Below, piece after piece: positions 36,599 to 53,695 of a stretch of 64,000 bases of DNA. The DNA is from Candidatus Binataceae bacterium (lineage in GTDB: Bacteria; Desulfobacterota; Binatia; Binatales; Binataceae). The notes below the pieces were generated by a model. The model was not told the DNA's origin and ran no database searches. It was given only the letters and a program-made list of their open reading frames with translations. The stretch is taken from contig JBEKJC010000008.1 in assembly GCA_050011435.1 (NCBI GenBank), positions 75,941 through 139,940 on the forward strand, given 5' to 3'. The number at the start of each line of letters is the position of its first letter. The stretch's first letter is position 1. The position numbers and the translations under genes were made by a program.

Positions 36599-38077
36599 TC
36601 ATTGGGCGGCGAGAGCGTCGATAATTCGTTCCATCGCGATGCCGCGCGATCCCTTGACCAGGAGGACATCGCCCGGGCGCACGAGGGCGCGCACGGCGGC
36701 GGCAGCCGCGGTGCTGTCGGCCGCGAATTGTATCACGGGCGGGCGCGCCGGTGCGCCGGAGCCGATTTCGGTCGCACCGGAATCGACCGCGCGAGCCGCC
36801 GCGGCCATTTCGGGGCCGACCAGGACGCAGGCGTCGGGCCGTGCTTGAAAGAGGTCGCGCACAGCCTCGGCATGCATCGCGGGCGCGAGCGCGCCGAGTT
36901 CGAGCATGTCGCCGAGCGCAACGACGAGCCGCGCGCGGAGGCCGTCGGCGGTCTCGCGCGCGGCCTCGAGCGCGACCCGCACCGAGCGCGGATTGGCGTT
37001 GTAGGTGTCGTCGATAACGACGACACCTACAAGCTCGCGCGTCGAGAGCCTGCCGGGGACGGGCTCAACGGCGGCGAGCGCGCGCGCGATCGCGGCGAGG
37101 TCGGCGCGGCCGAGCGGCCGCGGAGACGCGGCGCTGACGGCGGCGACGGCCGCCGCCGCATTCATGGCGGAAGCGGCGCCGAGCATCCCGAGGTTGGCTT
37201 CGAGCGCCGCGTCGACGCCGTCGGCGGTGAGCGCAGGCGTGAGCGCGAGCGCGATGCGCTGGCGGCCGGGCGCGACCACGACGCGGCTGGCGAGGCGGAC
37301 GCCGGCGTCGGCGGTCGCGCCGAACGTCAACGTGCGCGTCGGGGTGCGCATCTGGGCAGGAACGCGCGCCAGCAGCATCGATTCGGCGGTGCCGACGATC
37401 GCGATGCGGGCGGTCTTGAACAATTCCGCCTCTTCGTCGGCGATACCCTCGAGTGAGCCGAGCCCTTCGGTATGTTCGATGTCGACGTTGAGCACCAGCG
37501 CGACATCGGGAGTCACGATTTGGGCCAGGCGCGCGATCTCGCCGCGCCGGTTGGTGCCGCATTCGAGGACGGCTGCACGATGCGCGTCGGTGAGCGTCAG
37601 GATGGTCATCGGCACGCCGATCAAATTATTGAGATTGCCGGGGGTCGCGAGAATGTCGCCGAAGAGCGCGCGGGCGAGCGCCGCGGTCATTTCCTTGGTC
37701 GTGGTCTTGCCGGCCGCGCCGCCAATCGCGATGGTCGGCACGGGCCGCAGCGCACGCATCCGCTCGAGATGAAAGCGGGCGAGCGCGCCGAGTGCAGCCA
37801 GCGTATCGTCAACCTCGAAGCAGGGGAGGGCAGGATCGGTGCGTCCGCGTTCGACGATCGCGGCGGCAGCGCCACGCGCAGCAGCCTCGCGTACGAATTC
37901 ATGACCGTCGCGCACGCCGCGCAAAGCGATGAAAAGCGCGCCCGGCGCGATCGAGCGGGTGTCGATGCTGACACCAGTAAGCGAGAGGTCCGGTGGCCCG
38001 GAAAAAGCAGCGCCAGTCGCGCGCATAATTTCGGCGGGATTAAACCGGCATCGGTTGATCGGAATCGGCGTCGCCAT
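36599..38077 (-). CDS. murF: UDP-N-acetylmuramoyl-tripeptide--D-Ala-D-Ala ligase
   Basis: IDTR, GKTTTKE, NLNNLIGVP, DDTYNANP, LGDMLELG, LVKGSRG. Confidence 0.93.
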   Translation of the reverse strand: MATPIPINRCRFNPAEIMRATGAAFSGPPDLSLTGVSIDTRSIAPGALFIALRGVRDGHEFVREAAARGAAAAIVERGRTDPALPCFEVDDTLAALGALARFHLERMRALRPVPTIAIGGAAGKTTTKEMTAALARALFGDILATPGNLNNLIGVPMTILTLTDAHRAAVLECGTNRRGEIARLAQIVTPDVALVLNVDIEHTEGLGSLEGIADEEAELFKTARIAIVGTAESMLLARVPAQMRTPTRTLTFGATADAGVRLASRVVVAPGRQRIALALTPALTADGVDAALEANLGMLGAASAMNAAAAVAAVSAASPRPLGRADLAAIARALAAVEPVPGRLSTRELVGVVVIDDTYNANPRSVRVALEAARETADGLRARLVVALGDMLELGALAPAMHAEAVRDLFQARPDACVLVGPEMAAAARAVDSGATEIGSGAPARPPVIQFAADSTAAAAAVRALVRPGDVLLVKGSRGIAMERIIDALAAQ

Positions 38078-38127
38078 CGGGAGATTGTCCACGCTCCGGC
38101 AGGGCGGTGAAAGAGAGGAGGAGGGAA

Positions 38128-38537
38128 GTTGTTGAGAAGCATGGAATGGGAGAAAAAGAAGTTGTCAAGGAACAAAAACCCGTAGCCTTTTTAAGAAACT
38201 GAAACCTCATAGAGGTTTCAGACTTCCCGTTGGTAAAAGATGCGGGCTACGCCCTGTAAAAATCTCATAATCGTTGGTGCTTGCGTTACTCGGTTCCCGC
38301 AGGACTTGGCCGATTACCCGAGCATCGCGAGCGTCAATGATGATGAGGTTTCAGACTTCCCGTTTGGAAGATGCGGGCTGCGCCCTGTGAAAAATCCCAT
38401 GATCGCTGGTGGGTTGCGTTACTCGGTTGCCGCAGGACTTAGCCGACTACCCGAGCATCGCGAGCGTCAATTCATGATGGGAAGCCTGAAACCTTGTGAG
38501 GTTTCAGAAGAATATAAGTTTTGAGTTCCTCAACAAC
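38128..38537. repeat. Modular palindromic element copy A (inverted ends, tandem 133-bp unit)
   Basis: Palindromes at 38199-38221 and 38486-38507, half site at 38345. Ends are GTTGTCAAGGAAC and GTTCCTCAACAAC. Confidence 0.9.
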
Positions 38538-38637
38538 TGGACCTATGCGCGGAGGGCCGTTGGGGCGGCTTGACAAGGCCGCATCGGGGCAGCAGCCTCG
38601 TTGCGATTGTAGCAACCGCGATGGAGGTGGCCTTTAG

Positions 38638-39192
38638 ATGACTTTGGCGGAATCACCGCTGGTCGGTGTGATCATGGGCAGCAAGAGCGACTGGGAGTAT
38701 ATGGCCGCCGCCGCTGAGGTCATGAGTGAACTGCAAATAGCGCATGAGGTGCGGGTGCTGTCGGCCCATCGGACGCCCGATCTAACATTGGAGTACGCGG
38801 CGAACGCGGCGGGCCGCGGCCTGCGTGCGATAATCGCGGGGGCCGGCGGCGCGGCTCATCTGGCGGGGGTCGTCGCGGCCAAGACGCTGCTGCCGGTGAT
38901 AGGAGTGCCGATGCCGACCACTATCCTGAACGGCATGGACTCGCTGCTATCGATCGTGCAGATGCCCAAAGGGGTGCCGGTCGCGACGATGGCGATCGGC
39001 AAGCCGGGGGCGGCGAATGCGGGACTGTTCGCGGCGGCGATAATCGCGCTCGGCGATGCGCAGTTGGCGGATCGTTTGAAGAATTGGCGGGCGGCGCGGG
39101 TGATCGAGTTACTGGAGCAGAAGCTACCTCAAACCAAGGAAGCATCGGTACCAGTTGTCAAATCATCTCAGAGAAAACTCAAGATTAAATGA
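38638..39192 (+). CDS. purE: N5-carboxyaminoimidazole ribonucleotide mutase
   Basis: IMGSKSD, SAHRTP, AGAGGAAHLAG, SIVQMPKGVPVAT. Confidence 0.97.
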   Translation: MTLAESPLVGVIMGSKSDWEYMAAAAEVMSELQIAHEVRVLSAHRTPDLTLEYAANAAGRGLRAIIAGAGGAAHLAGVVAAKTLLPVIGVPMPTTILNGMDSLLSIVQMPKGVPVATMAIGKPGAANAGLFAAAIIALGDAQLADRLKNWRAARVIELLEQKLPQTKEASVPVVKSSQRKLKIK

Positions 39193-39205
39193 GCGATTAA
39201 CCTGT

Positions 39206-39240
39206 AGCAGGCTGTTGAAAAAGGCTTTTCACAGCCTGCT
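39206..39240. terminator. Hairpin after purE; resembles IS/MITE ends
   Basis: AGCAGGCTGTTGAAAA-AGGC-TTTTCACAGCCTGCT, 14 nt past the purE stop. Confidence 0.55.
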
Positions 39241-39336
39241 TCCCCTCACTCGCTCTCTCCCCAGTAGGGGCGAGAAGATAAGGAAAGAAGCCATTTTTCA
39301 CGCAGGGTGTTGAGTTGAAATTTCTAATTGGCAGAC

Positions 39337-40134
39337 ATGCTTAGCGCGTTAGCCAGGTTCGGATTAATCGCTCTCGCGATGGTTGCCGTTGCGGCGCCGC
39401 GCGCGCTGGCGCTCGAGATTCGCACGGCGGGCAAAATCAGCATGCCGGCCGACGTGCAGGTGGTGCCGTTTTCGACCGATGCGCTGGTGGCCGACCGGTT
39501 GCGGCAGGACTTCGAAGCCGAGCATCGATTGGCGGGCATCAGTGCGGCGTCGCCGTTAACGCTGTCAGTTTCGATCACCGAGAGTCCGCTGAGACCGGGC
39601 GTGTCGCTGCAGGATCTGGCACCGGGAGATCCCAATATCGAAGGGTTGATCAAAGCGGCCGGCGCAACACCGCCGCCGCTGGGCGATACGGGGACCGAGG
39701 TCGACGAGGCGGCGCTGGCGCGCGCTCGCGCGCAGAACCACATGCTGCCGCCGGGCGCGACGCCGATGCAGAATGTGTGGAATCAGATTCAGACCCATGG
39801 CGATCTCGGTCCACCGCTGGCGGATCCGGCCGGATGCGTTCCCGGGATGCCATGCGTTGCGACGGGGACGGCGCCGCCGCCATTGCCGCAACCCGGCAGC
39901 GAAGGCGCGACCGGGGACACGCAGGACTACATGTTGCAGGGCTACGAAGGAGCGGGCCGCCGCGCGCGGCGCCAGTTGGCCGCTTCGGACTTCGACAACG
40001 TGATCGTCGCGCGGGTTTCGATGAGCGGATCGGACGACAAGATGACAATTGTCGCCGTGACCCATCCGGGCGAGGACACCCATCAGGCGAAGAAGCTGAT
40101 CGCGGAGGAGATCGTCAACGACGTGCTGCATTGA
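39337..40134 (+). CDS. Hypothetical secreted Pro-rich protein
   Basis: Signal peptide; GC-rich codon usage like the neighbouring genes. Confidence 0.7.
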   Translation: MLSALARFGLIALAMVAVAAPRALALEIRTAGKISMPADVQVVPFSTDALVADRLRQDFEAEHRLAGISAASPLTLSVSITESPLRPGVSLQDLAPGDPNIEGLIKAAGATPPPLGDTGTEVDEAALARARAQNHMLPPGATPMQNVWNQIQTHGDLGPPLADPAGCVPGMPCVATGTAPPPLPQPGSEGATGDTQDYMLQGYEGAGRRARRQLAASDFDNVIVARVSMSGSDDKMTIVAVTHPGEDTHQAKKLIAEEIVNDVLH

Positions 40135-40166
40135 GGATCAGCGGACGGAGAAGAGAAAGGGGAAAT

Positions 40167-40309
40167 TTGTCGAGGAACGCGGAATTGGAGGGAAAAGAAG
40201 TTGTCAAGGAACAAAAACCTTTAGCTTTTTTAAGAAACTGAAACCTCGTGGAGGTTTCAGACTTCCCGTTGGTAAGATGCGGGCTGCGCCCTGTAAAAAC
40301 TCATAATCG
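40167..40309 (+). repeat. Modular palindromic element copy B (single end)
   Basis: Palindrome at 40238-40260, then ACTTCCCGTTGGTAAGATGCGGGCTGCGCCCTG; near copy of the A left end. Confidence 0.9.
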
Positions 40310-40334
40310 ATTAACGCCACAGGACCCGGCTCGC

Positions 40335-40742
40335 CTAGGGTCTCTTCAGTTGCGGGCGGTTGCGTTTGGCGTCGAACATCCGCACGGCCAAGTATCCGGC
40401 GACTATGTAAAACGCGGCGAAGCCGACCTCGATCACGCTGATGCGCTTATCGGTACTCCATCGGGCGGCGGCGACAAACGCGGTGCCCAGCACGAGGAAC
40501 GCGGTCATCTTTGGAATGAAGCCGCGCAGGGGCGAATTCGGATTGTCGGAAGCGCGCGCCGCGAGTACCACCCATAGCATCGCGACCGCGAACGACATCC
40601 CGAGGCAGATCGGGCCGCGCGCGTCGAGACGCTGATCGTTGAACCACAGCGCCAGGAAAAACAGAGCCGCGGCGAGCGGGCCGAAGACGAGCGCGCGCCA
40701 GGTCATCGTGAGTTCGCCGGCAGTGTAATGGTCGTCCTTCAT
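40335..40742 (-). CDS. Hypothetical 4-TM membrane protein
   Basis: Four hydrophobic segments; lies between repeat copies B and C. Start may be the later ATG (MTWRAL). Confidence 0.65.
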   Translation of the reverse strand: MKDDHYTAGELTMTWRALVFGPLAAALFFLALWFNDQRLDARGPICLGMSFAVAMLWVVLAARASDNPNSPLRGFIPKMTAFLVLGTAFVAAARWSTDKRISVIEVGFAAFYIVAGYLAVRMFDAKRNRPQLKRP

Positions 40743-40802
40743 GCGCCGTCAGTATCCGCAAGCAGAGCCGCTATCCGCAAGCGGCGCGCAGAAGGGGAGA
40801 TG

Positions 40803-41212
40803 GTGGTCAAGGAACTCAAAATTATAGTTTTTCAGGAAACTGAAACCTCACGAGGTTTCAGACTTCCCGTTGGGAAGATGCGGGCTTCGCCCTGGAAAAA
40901 TCTCATGATCGCTGGTGGCTTGCGCTACTCGGTTGCCGCAGGACTTAGCCGCCTACCCGAGCATCGCGAGCGCCAACCCATGATGAGGTTTCACGGCATT
41001 CCATGCCGCCGGTGGGCCACGAGCAGCCCAACAGTCTTGACCTGATTTTTCGGACTGCTCGCGATGCTCGATCGCGCGATAAGCGTATCGGCGCGCGTAG
41101 CGAACTGCATTTCTACCGAGGTTTTGACAGGGCGAAGCCCGCATCTTACAAATGGGAAGTTTGAAACCTGAGTGAGGTTTCAATGATATGAAGTTTTGAG
41201 TTCTTCGACCAC
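40803..41212. mobile_element. Modular element copy C, MITE/REPIN-like with ~95-bp imperfect terminal inverted repeats
   Basis: 40803-40903 is an imperfect reverse complement of 41118-41212. Palindromes at 40840-40861 and 41161-41183, half site at 40985. Mobility is inferred. Confidence 0.8.
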
Positions 41213-41240
41213 ATAGATACGCAACATCGTGGAGGAAGTT

Positions 41241-42020
41241 ATGTATCAATCATTCGAATATTCGCTCGACGACGGAATCGCGCTGGTGCGGCTGAACCGG
41301 CCCAACAAGCTCAACGCGATCGACCACACGATGGTGCGGGAGTTTGGCGAACTGGCCGCGAATATCCGGGCGGACAAGAACGTGCGTGTGGTGATCTTCA
41401 CGGGCATCGGGCGCGCGTTTTGCGCGGGCGCCGATATCGCGAGCCTCAACAGTATCGAGACCAGCGGTGACTTCATGACGCATATCGAGACGATTCAGAA
41501 GACCTTCAATGCGCTTGACGATCTCGACCGTCCGACGATCGCGGCGATCAACGGACTGGCGTTCGGCGGAGGCTGCGAGCTGTCGCTGGTGTGCGATTTC
41601 CGCATCATGGCCGAGGAAGCGTCGCTGGGCGTGCCGGAAATCCTGATCGGGGTATTACCGGGAGCGGGCGGTACGCAGCGGCTGGCCAAGATGCTGCCGC
41701 CGGCGATCGCGAAGCAGATGATTTATCTCGGCGAACCGCTCACGGCGGCGCAGGCGTTCCATTTCGGGCTGGTCAACCAGGTGGTGCCGGCGGCGCAGGT
41801 GCTGGAAGCCGCGATGGAGCTCGCGCGGCGGCTGCTGAAGATGCCGCCGCTGGGAGTGCGCTGCGCGAAGCTGCTGGTGCATACGGGGATGAACGCGGAT
41901 CTGAAGACCGGGATTGAGGCGGAGCGGCAAGCGATGGGGTTTTTGTTCGGGACCGCGGATCGCGTCGAGGGCATGGGTGCGTTTCTGGCGAAGCGTCCGG
42001 CGGCGTTCAAGGGGCGGTGA
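41241..42020 (+). CDS. Enoyl-CoA hydratase/isomerase
   Basis: LNRPNKLNA, FCAGADI, FGGGCEL, PEILIGVLPGAGGTQRL. Confidence 0.93.
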   Translation: MYQSFEYSLDDGIALVRLNRPNKLNAIDHTMVREFGELAANIRADKNVRVVIFTGIGRAFCAGADIASLNSIETSGDFMTHIETIQKTFNALDDLDRPTIAAINGLAFGGGCELSLVCDFRIMAEEASLGVPEILIGVLPGAGGTQRLAKMLPPAIAKQMIYLGEPLTAAQAFHFGLVNQVVPAAQVLEAAMELARRLLKMPPLGVRCAKLLVHTGMNADLKTGIEAERQAMGFLFGTADRVEGMGAFLAKRPAAFKGR

Positions 42021-42066
42021 TGGATGGGGAGGGGTGGCGGTGCTCCGCGCTAAAGAGGCGGGGATG

Positions 42067-42192
42067 ATGGTAGAGGAACTCAAAATTATAGTTTTTCAGG
42101 AAACTGAAACCTCACGAGGTTTCAGCGGCATTCCATGCCGTCGGTGGGCCACGCTCGCGATGCTCGGGGAGTTCGCCAAGTCTTGCGGCAAC
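42067..42192 (+). repeat. Modular element copy D
   Basis: 52 bp (42074-42125) identical to 40810-40861; lacks the 133-bp unit; followed by an inverted R module. Confidence 0.9.
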
Positions 42193-42215
42193 ATGATTGC
42201 TCAAGGGCCTGGATA

Positions 42216-42270
42216 ACGCGCGGAGGACCGCGCGGGTTTGTTCACTTCGTTCAGGATGACGGAGGGGGGC
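42216..42270. repeat. CGTC-type REP-like half repeat
   Basis: ACGCGCGGAGGACCGCGCG...TTCGTTCAGGATGACGGAGGGGGGC; homologs at 46518 and, inverted, at 53416. Confidence 0.7.
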
Positions 42271-42303
42271 GGACACACGGGCGAATGGCGGGATCGGGAA
42301 ATA

Positions 42304-43035
42304 CTAGTCGGGATCGAATTCCGCTTCATTGGATGAGCAGGGATCGCGGTCGGAGTCGGAATCCGGGTCGGTGGGGCGGCGGAAACCGAGCAGGGTGGAC
42401 ACCCGATCGAGAATGAAATCGTGCCACGCGCGACTACCGATCAGATCGGGCCGCAGGGTATCGAGATGGGCGAGGCCCATGATCGTCACCTGTAAGAACA
42501 GGGCGGCGAAATCGGGATCGAGGTTGGGGTCGACAGTTCCGCTCTTTTGTGCGGCCGAGACACTGCGGGAGATGACGCGCGCGGCTTCCTCGTTGACCTT
42601 GGACAGCAGGGCCATCGCGTCGTGGGCGCGGCTGCCGGCATCATGAATTTCGAGCGAGAGCTGCCGAATCAGCTTGTACTCCGGAGTGGTATAGCTGGCG
42701 GCGAATTCCGGCAGATCGGAGGCGTCGAGTTGGGCGGGTTCGAGGACGCGAACGCTGGTCGGCAAAGTTGCCAAGGCGTAGCGGACGACCTCGACCAGCA
42801 ATTGCGCCTTGCTCTCGAAATGGCGATAGATGGCGCCGGGAGTAATGCCGCTGCGCTTGGCAATCGCGGGCATCGAGGTGTGCGCGAAGCCGTGGGTGGC
42901 GAAGAGCTGGGCGGCGGAGATCAGGATGCGGTCGCTGGTGGCGGCCTGCGCGGAGGGGTCGCCGAGCGGCTGGCCCGGGAGAGCGTTTGCGCGCGCGCGC
43001 CTGGGGGCTTTGGAACCTGATGCCGACTTTTTCAC
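42304..43035 (-). CDS. TetR-family regulator
   Basis: HTH ILISAAQLFATHGFAHTSMPAIAKRSGITPGAIYRHFESK. Confidence 0.9.
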   Translation of the reverse strand: MKKSASGSKAPRRARANALPGQPLGDPSAQAATSDRILISAAQLFATHGFAHTSMPAIAKRSGITPGAIYRHFESKAQLLVEVVRYALATLPTSVRVLEPAQLDASDLPEFAASYTTPEYKLIRQLSLEIHDAGSRAHDAMALLSKVNEEAARVISRSVSAAQKSGTVDPNLDPDFAALFLQVTIMGLAHLDTLRPDLIGSRAWHDFILDRVSTLLGFRRPTDPDSDSDRDPCSSNEAEFDPD

Positions 43036-43160
43036 TTTTTCACTATCTCACAGGCCCTCAGAGTTTCCGAAAGCCGAGGTTGATTCAAGAGTCGCGAGCA
43101 CGCAGCACGACGCGCCGGAGCAGGCGCCCGCGAAGGGTTTTGGCGCGATGCCGATTATCC

Positions 43161-43189
43161 TTGACAAGTAAATGGACATTCACTAGGTT
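43161..43189 (+). promoter_or_regulatory. Sigma70-type promoter with overlapping palindromic (TetR-like) operator
   Basis: TTGACA-17bp-TAGGTT; the spacer holds the imperfect palindrome AGTAAATG-GA-CATTCACT; divergent TetR gene adjacent. Confidence 0.6.
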
Positions 43190-43471
43190 TCGGAAGAGTA
43201 CTACTGACACCTCAATTTACTGTTGTTGGAAGGGGACCCCAATGACGGAAATAAACCAGCGCTTGCGCCGAGGCGGTCCATAACCGCGACCTCAAGAGGG
43301 GATGCCCGTCAAGCGGACGTCCGTGGAGGACCGATCGCGGTCGTCGCGGATGCGCGTTCGGTGGATTGACTAGTATAGTTGCGGCGCCAGCACGCGGTCG
43401 CGGGTTTGAGCTTCGGAAATTCAAAATCCCTCACCGGGCAGGGAACACCCGATGAGGACGGAGGATCCAAT

Positions 43472-45187
43472 ATGGCCGAATTTGACGTAGTAATCAGTGG
43501 CGGAATGGTGGTCGACGGTACGCGGTTGCCGCGTTACCAGGCCGACGTCGGAATCAAGGATGGCAAGGTTGCGAAGATCGGCAACCTCAAGAAGCATAGT
43601 GCCGATAAGAGGATCGATGCGACGGGGAAGATCGTCGCGCCGGGCTTCGTCGACCTGCACACGCATTACGATGCGCAGCTCTTCTGGGATCCGTATTGTT
43701 CGATCTCGAGCTGGCACGGTGTGACTTCGCTGGTGATCGGCAATTGCGGCTTCGGCTTCGCGCCGGTCAAGCCCGATTTTCGCGAGCGTGCGATGTTAAC
43801 GATGACGCGGACCGAGGCGATACCCTATGCGTCGATGAAGGCGGGTCTGCCGTGGGACTGGGTAACTTATCCGGAGTTCCTCGACAGCGTTGAGCGCCGT
43901 CCCAAGGGCGTCAACCTGCTGCCGTTCGTGCCGATGGCACCGGTGATGGTGTGGGCGATGGGACTGGAGGCGGCCAAGTCGGGCCGCATGCCGACCGAGG
44001 CCGAGACCAATGAGATGAAGCGCATCGTCAACGAGGCGATGGACCATGGCGCGTGCGGATGGTCGGCGCAGCGCTTTGGCCAGAATAGCGTGCAGGCCGA
44101 TTACGACGGCACCCCGATGGTGACGGACCTGATGCACGACGAGACCGCATTGGCGCTGGCGAGCGTGCTCGGCGAGCGCAACGAAGGCTTCATCCAGATG
44201 TCGTATGTTCCGGATGCCAGCAAGTACGAGGGCGACGGACAGAGCCATTCGGAGAAGCATTACGAGGAACTGGCGCTGGTGAGCGGCCGTCCGATTCTGT
44301 ACAACGCGATCGCCGTCAATGACATGTATCCGGAACGCTACAAGCATCAACTCAAGTGGCTTGAAAGCTGCGCCAAGCGCGGTATCCGGGTGCTCGGTCA
44401 GAGCGTGACGCTGGAACTGAACTTCGCGTTCACCTTCAAGGACTGGAACCTGTGGGACGACATGCCGGCGTGGCGTGAGTGCACGGTTGGACCGATCGAA
44501 GATCGGCTGATGAAGCTGTCGGATCCGGAGCGCCGTCCGGAGTTGCGCAAGGTCGTGCAGACCGGACTGATCACGAACAAGATCGACGAGATCATCGTGC
44601 TCGAGTGCAAGCGCGAGGACTTGAAGAAGTACGAGAATAAGACGATCGGCGAGATCGCGAAGGCCGAGAACAAGCACGTCGTCGATGCGATGCTCGATAT
44701 CGCATGCGCGGACGGGCTCAACACGGACTTCTACACGCCGCCGACCAACATGAACGTGAAGAACATGGCCGAGATGATCCATTCGGACTCGCAGGTGATC
44801 TTCGGGGTTTCCGATGGCGGCGCGCATACCAAGTTCTTCACCGGCGGCCGTTATCCGTCGGAGGCGCTGATCAAATGCGTGCGCGACAATCCGGTAATGT
44901 CGCTGGAGGAAGCGCATTTCCGCCTGAGCGCCCAGCCAGCGATGTGCGCGGGGTTCAAGAATCGCGGCACGCTGGTGGAAGGCGCCGCGGCCGACGTCGT
45001 GGTTTACGACTTCGATAACCTGAAGATTCTGCCGATGGAAATCGTGCACGACTTCCCGGGTGGCGAATGGCGCCGGGTGCAGCGGGCCGAAGGTTACAAG
45101 GCGGTGCTCGTCAACGGTCAGGCGATTATCGAGGACGACAAGGAGACCGGAGCGTTCCCGGGACGCCTGCTGCGTAACGGCGGCTGA
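43472..45187 (+). CDS. N-acyl-D-amino-acid deacylase family amidohydrolase
   Basis: APGFVDLHTHYD, GNCGFGFAP, SDGGAH. RBS GGAGG. Confidence 0.92.
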   Translation: MAEFDVVISGGMVVDGTRLPRYQADVGIKDGKVAKIGNLKKHSADKRIDATGKIVAPGFVDLHTHYDAQLFWDPYCSISSWHGVTSLVIGNCGFGFAPVKPDFRERAMLTMTRTEAIPYASMKAGLPWDWVTYPEFLDSVERRPKGVNLLPFVPMAPVMVWAMGLEAAKSGRMPTEAETNEMKRIVNEAMDHGACGWSAQRFGQNSVQADYDGTPMVTDLMHDETALALASVLGERNEGFIQMSYVPDASKYEGDGQSHSEKHYEELALVSGRPILYNAIAVNDMYPERYKHQLKWLESCAKRGIRVLGQSVTLELNFAFTFKDWNLWDDMPAWRECTVGPIEDRLMKLSDPERRPELRKVVQTGLITNKIDEIIVLECKREDLKKYENKTIGEIAKAENKHVVDAMLDIACADGLNTDFYTPPTNMNVKNMAEMIHSDSQVIFGVSDGGAHTKFFTGGRYPSEALIKCVRDNPVMSLEEAHFRLSAQPAMCAGFKNRGTLVEGAAADVVVYDFDNLKILPMEIVHDFPGGEWRRVQRAEGYKAVLVNGQAIIEDDKETGAFPGRLLRNGG

Positions 45188-45282: not shown

Positions 45283-45494
45283 GTTGTTGAGGAACGCGGA
45301 ACCTTTGGTTTCTTTCTGAAACCTCATAGAGGTTTCAGACTTCCCGTTTGATGGAAGAGGGTAGCGATATGCGCAGGATACCGCCCTTCCCGCAGGACTT
45401 AGCCGACTACCCGAGCATCGCGAGCGTCAATCATGATGAGGTTTCAGACTTCCCGTTGGGGTGAGGTCATCGATTGGCGCTCGCGATGCTCGGG
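45283..45494 (+). repeat. Modular element copy E
   Basis: Palindrome at 45316-45338, half site at 45438, R module inverted pair at 45410-45432 and 45472-45494. Confidence 0.9.
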
Positions 45495-45518
45495 CTGATC
45501 TGCTAACCGGAGTGGACC

Positions 45519-46271: not shown

Positions 46272-46424
46272 GCCGAATTCTGGATCTCAGCGTTATAACC
46301 TAGCGGGCGCGGAGCCTGTCCTCGGCGAGGCGCCGCCCGCGATGACGGAAGCGTCGCGAGCCGGTTAGCGTAAGGTGAGCGTGTGGCCGTCACGCGACGA
46401 GAGTCAATCGTCACGAAGTTCTAG

Positions 46425-46510
46425 CAGGGCGAAGCCCGCATCTTACCAAAAGGGAAGTCTGAAACCTCTATGAGGTTTCAGAGACCTATAAGTTTTGGGT
46501 TCCTCAACAA
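46425..46510 (-). repeat. Modular element copy F (inverted end)
   Basis: CAGGGCGAAGCCCGCATCTTACCAAAAGGGAAGT, palindrome at 46459-46481, then GTTCCTCAACAA. Confidence 0.9.
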
Positions 46511-46517
46511 ATGGAAT

Positions 46518-46612
46518 ACGCGCGGGGGACCGCGCGAGATCCTTCGACTCCGGCAGCCTTCGCTCAGGATGACGGAGGGGGGCAGCCGGTAATCAGGATG
46601 ACGGGAGGGGGC
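46518..46612. repeat. CGTC-type REP-like half repeat with duplicated tail
   Basis: ...AGATCCTTCG...CTTCGCTCAGGATGACGGAGGGGGGC; the TCAGGATGACGG tail occurs twice. Confidence 0.7.
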
Positions 46613-46621
46613 GCCCGGCGA

Positions 46622-47713
46622 TCACGCCGACGGCTTGGCGGGCAGCGACTCGAACCACGGCAGCACCAGCCGTTCGTTGATCGAATAGGGGAAGGCGTGG
46701 CCCCATTCGGGCAATTCCTCGTAGGTCGCGTTGTAGCCGATCTGGGTGAGCAGGTTGCAGGTCTGGCGCGTGAAGGCGACCGGAAAGATGAAGTCGTGGA
46801 CGCCGTGGACGACGAAGATGGGGGTGTCCTTGCCGCGCCCCTCGCGCAACATCTGGTCGACCACGAGATGCAGCGCGCCGGCGACCGGGGCAAGGCCGCG
46901 AAACAGTCGGCTCTGCTCGAGCCCGAGGATGTAGGTGAAGATGCCGCCGTCGGACAGGCCGCTCAGATAGACGCGCGCGGGATCGATGGAGTACTCGCGG
47001 GTGACTTCCTCGAACATGCGCGTCACGGAGCGAGTATCGCGGCTCGGCACCGTCATGTCCCAGGTGTTGCCCCATGACTTGGGCGCGAGGATCGCATAGC
47101 CGCCGCTGCGCGCCGGCCGCAGCCACGTCCATACGTACTCCGAGCCCTGGCCGTAGCCGCCGTGGAGCGCGACGATCAGCGGGAGGGGACGGTCAGACGA
47201 ATAATCCTCCGGAATGTAGAGCGTGTAATCCGAGCGCTGGTCGTTGCGCTCGCGCTGGATGAATCCGGTGGCGGCGGCGCCGGGTATCGCGGGCGCGGCG
47301 GGCGCCTGCGCCCCGGGTATCAGGAAGTACGCGGCGACGATCGGGAGTTGGTCGCGCAATTCGTAGAGCTGGTAGAGGCCGCGGCAAAACGCGCCGCGGC
47401 TGTAGAGAAAAGCGACCGTCCAATCGCGGCTGGGTTTGGTCATAAAGAGGTTGCACGCCTTGCCCAGTTCGGTGATGGCGGAGCACAGCCGCTGATGCAG
47501 ATCCGCCATCGCGGCGGGCGGCGTCAACGGCGCGAAGGTCGAATCGAAGCGGCGAAAGGTATCGCCGACGGCGGCCACCAGTTGCGCCTGGCTCTCGGCC
47601 ACGGCGCCGAGCCGCAGGTCTTCCTGGATGGTCTCGAAGGCGCGCAGGAAGGTCAGGATTTCATGCTGAAGCGTCGTCAGCGTCTGCGTGTAGGTGCGGT
47701 CGTCGTGTGCCAT
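46622..47713 (-). CDS. Alpha/beta-hydrolase (esterase-like) with helical N-terminal domain
   Basis: PLIVALHGG, YLSGLSDGG nucleophile elbow, VHGVHD, WGH. Confidence 0.8.
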   Translation of the reverse strand: MAHDDRTYTQTLTTLQHEILTFLRAFETIQEDLRLGAVAESQAQLVAAVGDTFRRFDSTFAPLTPPAAMADLHQRLCSAITELGKACNLFMTKPSRDWTVAFLYSRGAFCRGLYQLYELRDQLPIVAAYFLIPGAQAPAAPAIPGAAATGFIQRERNDQRSDYTLYIPEDYSSDRPLPLIVALHGGYGQGSEYVWTWLRPARSGGYAILAPKSWGNTWDMTVPSRDTRSVTRMFEEVTREYSIDPARVYLSGLSDGGIFTYILGLEQSRLFRGLAPVAGALHLVVDQMLREGRGKDTPIFVVHGVHDFIFPVAFTRQTCNLLTQIGYNATYEELPEWGHAFPYSINERLVLPWFESLPAKPSA

Positions 47714-50207: not shown

Positions 50208-50558
50208 GAGAACCGTTGAAACCTTTGAAAGGTTTCAAACTTCCAACAGTGAACAAGATTGATAGGTCTTGCGTGCGATATCATTGAGACCTTTCACGGG
50301 TGCGCAAGCGGAGGTTGGCCCTTTCCAGGCTGACAGAGGAGCGGGGATTCTCGAGCTCTAAGGGTCCCGCTCCGTCGCGGCGGTCCCGCAGATTGCGCAT
50401 CTAATTCCAGAGGGCATTATTACTGTCACCCCTACGGAAAACCTATCACCAAATTGCTGATGGCAGCCAGGACAACGGCATTTCAACTCGCGCGATTCAG
50501 ACCATCATGTTTATTCATTGTGGGAAGTTTGAAACCTTTCGAAGGTTTCAAGTTTCTC
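50208..50558. repeat. Modular element copy G: divergent variant, inverted pair around ~220 bp of unique interior
   Basis: TTGAAACCTT-N3-AAGGTTTCAA at 50216-50238 and 50529-50551; ~60-bp imperfect inverted arms. Confidence 0.8.
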
Positions 50559-51958: not shown

Positions 51959-52076
51959 TTGCTGGGGAACGCAAAACTATTATTTCCCGACACTGAAACC
52001 TCAATGAGGTTTCAGACTTCCCATAAGCATGATTGATGCTCGCGCTGCCCGGGTGGGCGGCCAAGTCCTGCGGAAC
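51959..52076 (+). repeat. Modular element copy H
   Basis: Palindrome at 51993-52015 plus an inverted R module; resembles the reverse complement of the A right end. Confidence 0.85.
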
Positions 52077-53415: not shown

Positions 53416-53617
53416 CCGTCATCCCGAACGCAGTGAAGGGTCTCGCGCGGCCCTCCGTGCGTAATTCAGTTGTTGAGGAGCGCAAAACTTTAGCTTCACT
53501 GAAACCTCATGGAGGTTTCAGACTTCCCGTTTGTAAGATGCGGGCTTCGCCATCATGATTGGCGCTCGCGTTGCTCGATCGCGCGATAGGCGCGCGGGGA
53601 CGCTCGCGATGCTCGGG
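53416..53617 (+). repeat. Modular element copy I with attached CGTC-type half repeat
   Basis: CCGTCATCCCGAACG... (53416-53462), then GTTGTTGAGGAGC, palindrome at 53499-53521, Q module and two inverted R fragments. Confidence 0.88.
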
Positions 53618-53695
53618 TGAGTGGTCACGCGGACGAGCTTGAGACGCGCCAGACTAGATATAGTGAGACAGCTTTGCAAGAGAGAGGAGTGACTA

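Follow-up and report, generated by a model that had tools for sequence, protein, structure and literature searches.

Mosaic palindromic repeats with zero, one, or two interiors in a Binataceae genome, probably reshuffled by recombination at their hairpins

Within a 64,000-nt stretch of the genome of an uncultured peat bacterium of the Binataceae (the window), several elements share a short hairpin, and a 133-bp unit bounded by one arm of this hairpin is present twice in one element, once in a second, and not at all in a third. How does the number of units come to differ between such similar neighbors? An earlier note on this DNA had proposed that the right arm of the hairpin, GAGGTTTCA, was a crossover or insertion point regenerated with each added unit, as expected for the excision and integration of a minicircle. 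The analysis described here indicates that the elements are probably neighbors within a family of mosaic palindromic repeats, confined to the genus, non-coding, and located between genes, whose members are reshuffled by recombination at their hairpins. The genome holding the window (G000) comprised 4.65 Mb in 137 contigs, with 61% GC and 100% completeness by markers, and was compared with 12 other genomes of the genus (labeled in the style G001-G012) and 18 genomes outside the genus. Loci outside the window are named by the contig and position of G000 (e.g., C17:65935).

Unit number and the grammar of the elements

The recurring pieces of the elements were named with letters, profile hidden Markov models were built from BLAST seeds, and G000 was annotated genome-wide. 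The outer AT-rich arm is denoted O and the hairpin H. The right arm GAGGTTTCA started at positions 38212, 38345, 38498, 40251, 40852, 40985, 41174, 42116, 45329, and 45438 of the window. The resulting spacing of 133 bp in element A, 133 bp in element C, and 109 bp in element E confirmed the earlier count of two tandem units in A, one in C, none in element D, and a 109-bp variant in E. Element A (38160-38538, no strand assigned) lay between a Mur-ligase gene on the minus strand and purE on the plus strand. It consisted of the outer arm O, a full hairpin at 38199-38221, two units, GGGAAGC with a full hairpin at 38479-38507, and the outer arm O'. The first unit, A1 (38212-38344, plus strand), contained a half-site, Q, M, R, and GATGAT, and the second, A2 (38345-38478, plus strand), started with a half-hairpin from which the left arm and the loop were missing. 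Tandem Repeats Finder reported the array at 38212-38479 with a period of 133, 2.0 copies, and 88% matches; it was the sole array of the family reported genome-wide at a period of at least 60 and a score of at least 50.

Element C (40803-41212, no strand assigned) contained O, a hairpin at 40840-40861, one unit at 40852-40984, a half-site at 40985-40993, and module S at 40994-41021, followed by T at 41022-41057, inverted R at 41058-41072, a low-copy stretch, inverted Q at 41118-41160, a hairpin at 41161-41183, and O'. Element D (42068-42264, plus strand) was built from O, a hairpin at 42104-42125, S at 42126-42153, inverted R at 42154-42168, and then Z- and Y-type repeats, with neither the unit nor module T. 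Direct comparison of the sequence slices showed that D 42074-42125 was identical to C 40810-40861 (52/52 bases) and that D 42126-42153 matched the post-unit sequence of C at 40994-41021 in 27 of 28 bases. The unit was therefore absent from D, as the earlier note had stated. In one small departure from the note, D read GAGGTTTCAG before CGGCATT where C read GAGGTTTCA. D also lacked the 36-bp T that followed the post-unit sequence in C. C and D, which occupy different loci, are paralogues rather than alleles. In element E (45284-45495, plus strand), O and a hairpin at 45317-45338 were followed by the 109-bp unit at 45329-45437, which had a different first half and then R, and by a half-site at 45438-45446, ACTTCCC, and inverted R.

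The 133-bp unit was a composite of modules, namely the half-site, Q, M, R, and CATGAT. A BLAST search of G000 with the unit of C returned 195 pieces, mostly covering positions 1-50 or 80-125 alone. The linker M had only five copies, three in A1, A2, and C and one in each of two truncated elements of contigs C1 and C3. Q and R were also found on their own, in both orientations. The canonical complete element had the order O-H-Q-linker-R-GGGAAGT-H-O' (C6:112790, C27:39840, and C4:79250), and the minimal element was O-H-O' (C3:66985 and C14:29000). The 133-bp unit is the interior (Q+M+R) of the canonical element counted with one hairpin arm. Between full hairpins, the number of interiors was zero in the minimal elements and one in the canonical copies, and A was the canonical element with its interior present twice. 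Units of other contents shared the half-site boundary: a Q-R-T' unit of ~139 bp was found in 2.3 copies at C3:73760, further arrays were located at C9:9120 and C21:10500, and 159-bp K-R units were found twice in the relative G004 and also in G000. The two units of A were 88-92% alike. Two indels were common to A1 and the units at C1:109k and C3:71k but not to A2, which was closest to the unit of C (92.5%) and grouped with it by indels. Since A1 groups with the C1/C3 copies and A2 with C, array A does not appear to be a fresh local slip.

The hairpin was about 22 bp long, with GAGGTTTCA(G) as the right arm. In the window, the form CTGAAACCTC-NNN-GAGGTTTCA was found at seven sites, and CTGAAACCTCNNNGAGGTTTCA gave 14 matches (the seven sites on both strands, with up to two mismatches) against 0.00 expected from 100 shuffles. 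Genome-wide, the hairpin TGAAACCT-N2-8-AGGTTTCA had 272 exact and 307 near-exact copies, 255 of the latter carrying an ACTTCCC extension. The census gave 213 copies of O, 151 of Q, 5 of M, 244 of R, 60 of S, 64 of T, 70 of K, 53 of Z, and 41 of Y at 366 loci. Q was followed by R in 29 direct and 28 inverted cases, and R by inverted T in 25. Full hairpins almost always had O on one side, with Q (72), inverted R (21), S (17), or O (2) on the other, and some further full hairpins had one side without an annotated neighbor. Among 740 adjacent module pairs, 489 had a hairpin or half-hairpin and 251 had none. A, C, and the canonical copies carried O and the hairpin together (~60 nt) at each end in inverted orientation, element sizes ranged from 100 to 410 bp, and whole elements were long imperfect palindromes. 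When folded as single-stranded DNA, C reached -121.9 kcal/mol compared with -58.3 for shuffles (z -13.4) and A reached -70.5 compared with -46.7 (z -4.9), whereas single units folded like shuffles (z +0.5 and -0.3).

Matches to the family were found in seven of the 12 other genomes of the genus and in none of the 18 outside it. A search for exact matches to the hairpin plus Q in 185,579 species genomes returned at least 78, and all among the matches listed were titled as Binataceae, Binatus, or "delta proteobacterium" metagenome-assembled genomes (MAGs). No paper on the family was found in the literature on repeat, palindromic, or MITE (miniature inverted-repeat transposable element) families of Binatia, Binatota, or Binatus. 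The family looks old by the divergence of its copies: over 128 comparable segments the median best-hit identity was 89.6% and the maximum 96.7%, with no identical pair. The orthologous spacer between the Mur-ligase gene and purE contained no family module in three of five relatives (G010, G007, and G001). In G005 it held an O' alone, and in G004 a full element whose interior modules differed, which indicates that this spacer was occupied differently in different species. These spacers (L017, L018, L019, L025, and L026) were too diverged to date the gain of a unit. At the empty orthologous site in the three relatives, the flanks were too diverged to place the ends of A and thereby a target-site duplication, and the purine- and pyrimidine-rich flanks were themselves inverted.

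The hairpin arm as a joint between modules

Every half-hairpin inside a mosaic followed either R or inverted T with the end ...GTCAATCATGATG or a variant of R with the end ...CTGAAAAAAG. What came after the R core was counted in 169 of 1,031 loose regular-expression matches, namely those that fitted eight named classes. GGGAAGT with a full hairpin and O' followed in 41 copies, inverted Q in 17, and a half-site in 15, with Q as the next module in 10 copies, S in three, and O' in two. The right end of A was GTCAATTCATGATG-GGAAGCCTGAAACCTTGTG-AGGTTTCAG and its internal junction was GTCAATGATGATG-AGGTTTCAG; the internal junctions of A and C corresponded to the normal right end minus 19 nt (the GGAAGYC/ACTTCCC complement together with the left arm and loop). 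Apart from itself, C was matched best by G000:C9:99320-99690, with 77% identity over 290 nt; this locus had the module order of C but contained a full internal hairpin between R and S. Most junctions read CATGATG|AGGTTTCA, three junctions and the second one of the C3:73760 array read CATGAC|GGTTTCA, and one read CATGATG|GTTTCA. Deletions that end, 2 nt apart, at a G or at GG microhomology would fit these variants.

The 62 nt on either side were compared for 12 half-sites. C7:7270 and C21:10695, with S and Q as the respective right partners, were 95% identical on the left and 61% on the right; C7:7270 and C7:129218 were 74% identical on the left and 98% on the right; E and C17:65935 were 97% identical on the left and 65% on the right. 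Overall, these three mosaic pairs had 94-98% identity on one side of AGGTTTCA and 61-77% on the other, so that the half-site, or the shared R tail of at least 40 nt on its left, has served as a crossover point more than once. The right hairpin arm, or half-site, is a real joint, and sequence has been exchanged there in at least three locus pairs. The part of the earlier note that took the right arm as a crossover point, with a copy of the arm in each unit, was thus upheld by the three exchanges, whereas excision and integration of a minicircle found no support. Similarity end-points along A did cluster at the half-site (38345, 87 starts), but further clusters marked where Q ends (38393, 52 ends) and where R starts (38294-38302) and ends (38338, 35 ends). 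The A1/A2 junction block and C17:65935 were 96.7% identical over 91 nt, the top pair among the 128 segments. The junction 15-mer CATGATGAGGTTTCA was present eight times in G000 and in none of the 12 relatives, while the R core had 67 copies in G000 and 30 in five of the relatives. The block thus looks as if it arose once, in this lineage, and was copied and recombined afterwards, not made anew each time.

Reshuffling at hairpins would change unit number and module content by recombination or template switching between hairpin-bearing repeats, which offer direct repeats of 16-23 bp (H with its ACTTCCC extension) and of at least 40 bp (R with its tail). Where two Q-type interiors are joined head to tail, the junction would form a perfect palindrome whose arms are 17 bp long, and the half-site would be what is left once one of these arms is lost. 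The block of R tail and half-site would subsequently have spread within the species by recombining with the right-hand partners Q, S, and O'. No dedicated enzyme would be needed for these steps, and if a deletion between two hairpins released a circle, this circle would be incidental and not the vehicle.

Several points weigh against this account. The recombination event itself was not observed, and the loss of one arm is inferred. A full hairpin flanked on both sides by Q-type interiors, as the account postulates for its intermediate, was not found in any of 13 genomes: none of the 307 hairpins of G000 had ACTTCCC on both sides, and this long palindrome was also absent from 11 of the 12 relatives, the two sites in G005 both lying elsewhere than between units. 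Avoidance of the long palindrome counts in favor of the account and fits the supposed instability of the intermediate, yet the absence is indistinguishable from its never having existed. A recurring junction with different partners is also expected from a site-specific process, and four unit contents (133, 109, ~139, and 159 bp) with one half-site boundary fit such a process as well. To the right of the half-site, Q-type and S-type partners have no more than 9-10 nt in common, a short stretch for exchange that depends on RecA, and the split of A1 and A2 into two lineages rests on five sequences and two indels.

The persistence of the joints was followed in assembled contigs of four public metagenome runs from 2017 to 2025, from which rare variants drop out; over 20 runs, the same peat and wetland sites came up again and again. 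A 120-nt contig over the A1/A2 junction (38250-38369) was recovered from all four runs without differences and at the depth of single-copy flanks, so the junction is not an assembly artefact. For the interior of C (40840-41130), no piece was among the metagenome matches listed. The unit-number heterogeneity for which the earlier note had suggested a search left no sign in the contigs of the four runs, from which rare forms may escape. Among the joints listed (15 of 73), none skipped or repeated 133 nt at A or C, and they connected paralogous repeat copies. A junction 22-mer was found in five metagenome contigs of JGI. Four of them were 100% identical over 1,222 bp to G000 at C7:125152 and C17:65935, which showed no variation at these two loci, and the fifth belonged to another genome and contained an R/half-site fragment only. 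A 24-mer from the right flank of A had no match in the same collection, where near-identical records possibly lay outside the search. The metagenome contigs show that the forms exist and persist, and they are compatible with rare variants.

It is unlikely that replication slippage merely duplicated a unit in tandem within A, with the series of two, one, and zero units being a comparison of paralogues without a common process, although slippage is expected once two direct repeats of 16-17 nt lie 133 nt apart. A alone was scored genome-wide by Tandem Repeats Finder, and C and D are not alleles, as slippage in A only would have it. However, A1 and A2 are each as close or closer to units elsewhere, more diverged arrays are present at C3:73760, C9:9120, and C21:10500 and in G004, and the partner exchanges at half-sites need events between elements.

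Cassette-like site-specific recombination, in which a recombinase would cut at or near GAGGTTTCA and circles would re-enter any hairpin and regenerate the half-site, is quite unlikely. All four kinds of unit start with the half-site, in G000 and in G004, and the three partner exchanges at the half-site are clean. The hairpin is also recognized by at least one transposase family, since 10 of 12 ends of IS1595-family insertion sequences (ISs) were inserted in its center and joined to CTCRYGAG|GTTTCA, with an 8-bp palindromic duplication. A recombinase acting on dRS3 was hypothesized for the Neisseria intergenic mosaic elements (NIMEs) in the account of PMC1797815, and circular excision with reinsertion is listed among the possibilities for boxB in PMC3049150. 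On the other hand, the usual right end keeps the full hairpin (41 copies against 15 half-site junctions), and since integration at the right arm would not yield such an end, these counts speak against a minicircle. The unit is not a module of its own, the 251 hairpin-free joints among the 740 do not fit, and the junctions vary by 2 nt among CATGATG|AGGTTTCA, CATGAC|GGTTTCA, and CATGATG|GTTTCA. The search for a Y1 transposase (PF01797) gave no match in the 13 genomes of the genus, G000 included, with the control search positive in six of 14 known genomes. No candidate recombinase linked to the elements was found, and no integrase-directed search was made. The presence of IS1595 does not track the repeats, and the old appearance of the family also counts against a cassette system. 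That the right arm is the crossover site of a hairpin-directed recombination system of the Binataceae, moving non-coding units of 109-159 bp as cassettes, is accordingly held to be very unlikely; if true, such a system would be the mechanism hypothesized for the dRS3/NIME arrays of Neisseria, in a lineage in which no Y1 transposases were found.

A role of the unit as a functional RNA or a regulatory module, with selection tuning its number, is highly improbable. The elements are located both upstream and downstream of genes, and BOX modules are reported to affect expression in PMC3049150, but Rfam covariance models gave no match in the window at 37000-44000 on both strands with E up to 1, the folding of the unit is no better than that of shuffles, and the elements of the window occupy divergent, convergent, and tandem contexts alike. 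Least probable of all is a small transposon of 124 nt between two copies of GAGGTTTCA in the hairpin arm, with GAGGTTTCA as a 9-bp target-site duplication: although C compared with D is formally an insert plus a 9-bp direct repeat and transposases do target the hairpin, terminal inverted repeats are absent from the insert, the ACTTCCC with which it opens is the usual extension of the hairpin, seen in 255 of 307 copies, IS1595 duplicates the 8-bp center of the hairpin and not the arm, and a single unit is no more structured than shuffles.

Other members of the family and neighboring repeats

All eight family loci of the window were intergenic, i.e., located between open reading frames (ORFs). 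Element B (40197-40312, plus strand) contained only O, a hairpin at 40238-40260, and Q, without a right end, and had convergent genes on either side. Three further members had no strand assigned: inverted Q, a hairpin at 46459-46481, O', and then Z and Y repeats at 46417-46577; a hairpin and inverted R at 51994-52072; and Z, O, a hairpin at 53499-53521, Q, and inverted R twice at 53441-53625. The genes around the elements were the Mur ligase (minus strand), purE (plus strand), two unassigned ORFs, an enoyl-CoA hydratase (plus strand), and a TetR regulator (minus strand). A truncated second copy of the purine-rich start of O (GGGAG.. and TTGTYGAGRA..) was seen just outside the left arm of A (38120-38160) and of B (40150-40196). 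Z and Y (53 and 41 copies) were usually found together beside O' or S, in the window at 42190-42272 and 46564-46624, and at the latter site the Y-like sequence formed a 29-bp tandem of 2.1 copies.

A second hairpin subfamily had the loop TTGAA or TTCAA followed by module K, with 56 exact hairpins and 49 hairpin-K pairs. It was found in the window at 50217-50310, at G000:C6:61102-61349, and at positions 1363-1700 of L124 (G004), and it forms the 159-bp tandem units, with the same half-site bounds, of G000 and G004. The TTGAA hairpin was considered as the end of a paralogous gene family or of an IS, but no conserved ORF ended at any of the 76 sites, which points to another set of non-coding modules (H2-K). 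The window also contained an unrelated element of ~117 bp with two internal hairpins (39205-39321), located between purE and the gene that follows. At least ten further copies of it had 98-100% identity and different unique flanks, and its metagenome depth was about ten times that of its flanks. With near-identical copies, this element looks like a case of recent spread, unlike the old mosaic family.

At least nine O...O' pairs spanned 0.5-5 kb. The ORFs of five of them were scanned; they encoded an alpha/beta hydrolase, a short-chain dehydrogenase, or a PNPOx-family protein or were without an assignment, and no transposase was found. The ends of the IS1595-family elements were unrelated to O. 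The sole complete copy, 3.5 kb long, occupied about 195-3755 of L105 (G000:C6:173300-177250) and carried a DDE_Tnp_IS1595 transposase gene, a SocA/Panacea-domain gene, and a Fic/DOC gene. The other ends were located at contig ends of C3, C9, C12, C15, C36, C58, and C113 and at C2:198930, and an eleventh end was joined to CTCGCGAG, outside any hairpin. IS1595 was rejected as the mobilizer of the family, being present in the repeat-free G012, G008, and G002 and absent from the repeat-bearing G007. The 3' end of an IS110-family element (Transposase_20 matches) broke the assembly at 13 contig ends (C4, C5 twice, C6, C7, C20, C27, C30, C31, C36, C48, C56, and C60). These ends adjoined inverted T, Z, and a "gcgaagaatcccgg" repeat, and from this contact with repeat modules the IS110 element appears to target repeats too.

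Comparison with known repeat systems

How mosaic intergenic repeats such as bacterial interspersed mosaic elements (BIMEs), NIMEs, and BOX are assembled and reshuffled is still unsettled. The Binataceae family offers a clean grammar for this question, with zero, one, or two interiors, a half-hairpin equal to a full hairpin minus one arm, and exchanges located to a precision of a few bases. Moreover, a search of 13 genomes of this genus did not find the usual suspect, the transposase associated with repetitive extragenic palindromes (RAYT). For the annotation of Binataceae MAGs, the repeats and the insertion sequences homing into them explain many contig breaks, and annotators should not read the repeats as regulatory leaders or gene cassettes. 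This is repeat biology of an ordinary kind, probably selfish or neutral.

The non-autonomous, hairpin-forming elements described in PMC3116915 and PMC3337134, namely REPINs, mobilized by RAYTs, and MITEs, mobilized by resident ISs, resemble the Binataceae elements in size (100-400 bp), inverted ends, folding into a long hairpin, and intergenic location. They differ in that no RAYT and no IS with O arms was found here and no target-site duplication was readable. Palindrome-associated elements derived from IS200/IS605 are likewise set apart by the negative Y1 search in 13 of 13 genomes.

BIMEs are described as repetitive extragenic palindromes (REPs) combined with other short motifs, with copy-number variation and IS insertion into the palindromes (PMC2817692, PMC3333891, and PMC1525189), and a conserved GTAG or CGTC head is given as the tag of REPs in PMC3733652. 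The Binataceae family shares with them a short palindrome in more than 100 copies (272 exact and 307 near-exact), intergenic at eight of eight window loci, and a mosaic of palindrome and motifs at 366 loci with many module orders and zero, one, or two interiors. It differs in that no RAYT/Y1 transposase was found in the 13 genomes of the genus and in that its hairpin is AT-richer than the 61% GC genome instead of GC-rich.

The BOX elements of Streptococcus pneumoniae have the order boxA-boxB(n)-boxC, and both unequal crossover and circular excision with reinsertion are considered for them in PMC3049150. Fixed ends, a variable number of tandem middle modules, and the folding of the whole into a stem-loop are common to both families. 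However, boxB is one module type, whereas the interior here is itself a mosaic (Q, M, N, R, T, and K), and strain variation is documented for BOX but was not seen here in the contigs of four runs.

The NIMEs are described in PMC1797815 as RS units of 50-150 bp flanked by the 20-bp dRS3 in intergenic arrays of variable number, dRS3 being the integration target of a filamentous phage. The Binataceae family belongs to another phylum and has no sequence similarity to them; its arrays are short, with at most two to three units, and its elements have long outer inverted arms (O), fold as one hairpin, and contain internal half-hairpin boundaries. The likeness is one of design only, without homology: in both, many unit families in intergenic arrays of variable number are bounded by a short repeat (~22 bp here) that has inverted ends and is the target of a mobile element (an IS1595-type element here, a filamentous phage there), the units here being 109, 133, ~139, and 159 bp long and bounded by the hairpin or its right arm. 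With its palindromes, mosaic interiors, and variable unit number, the Binataceae family is a new member of the REP/BIME/NIME/BOX kind.

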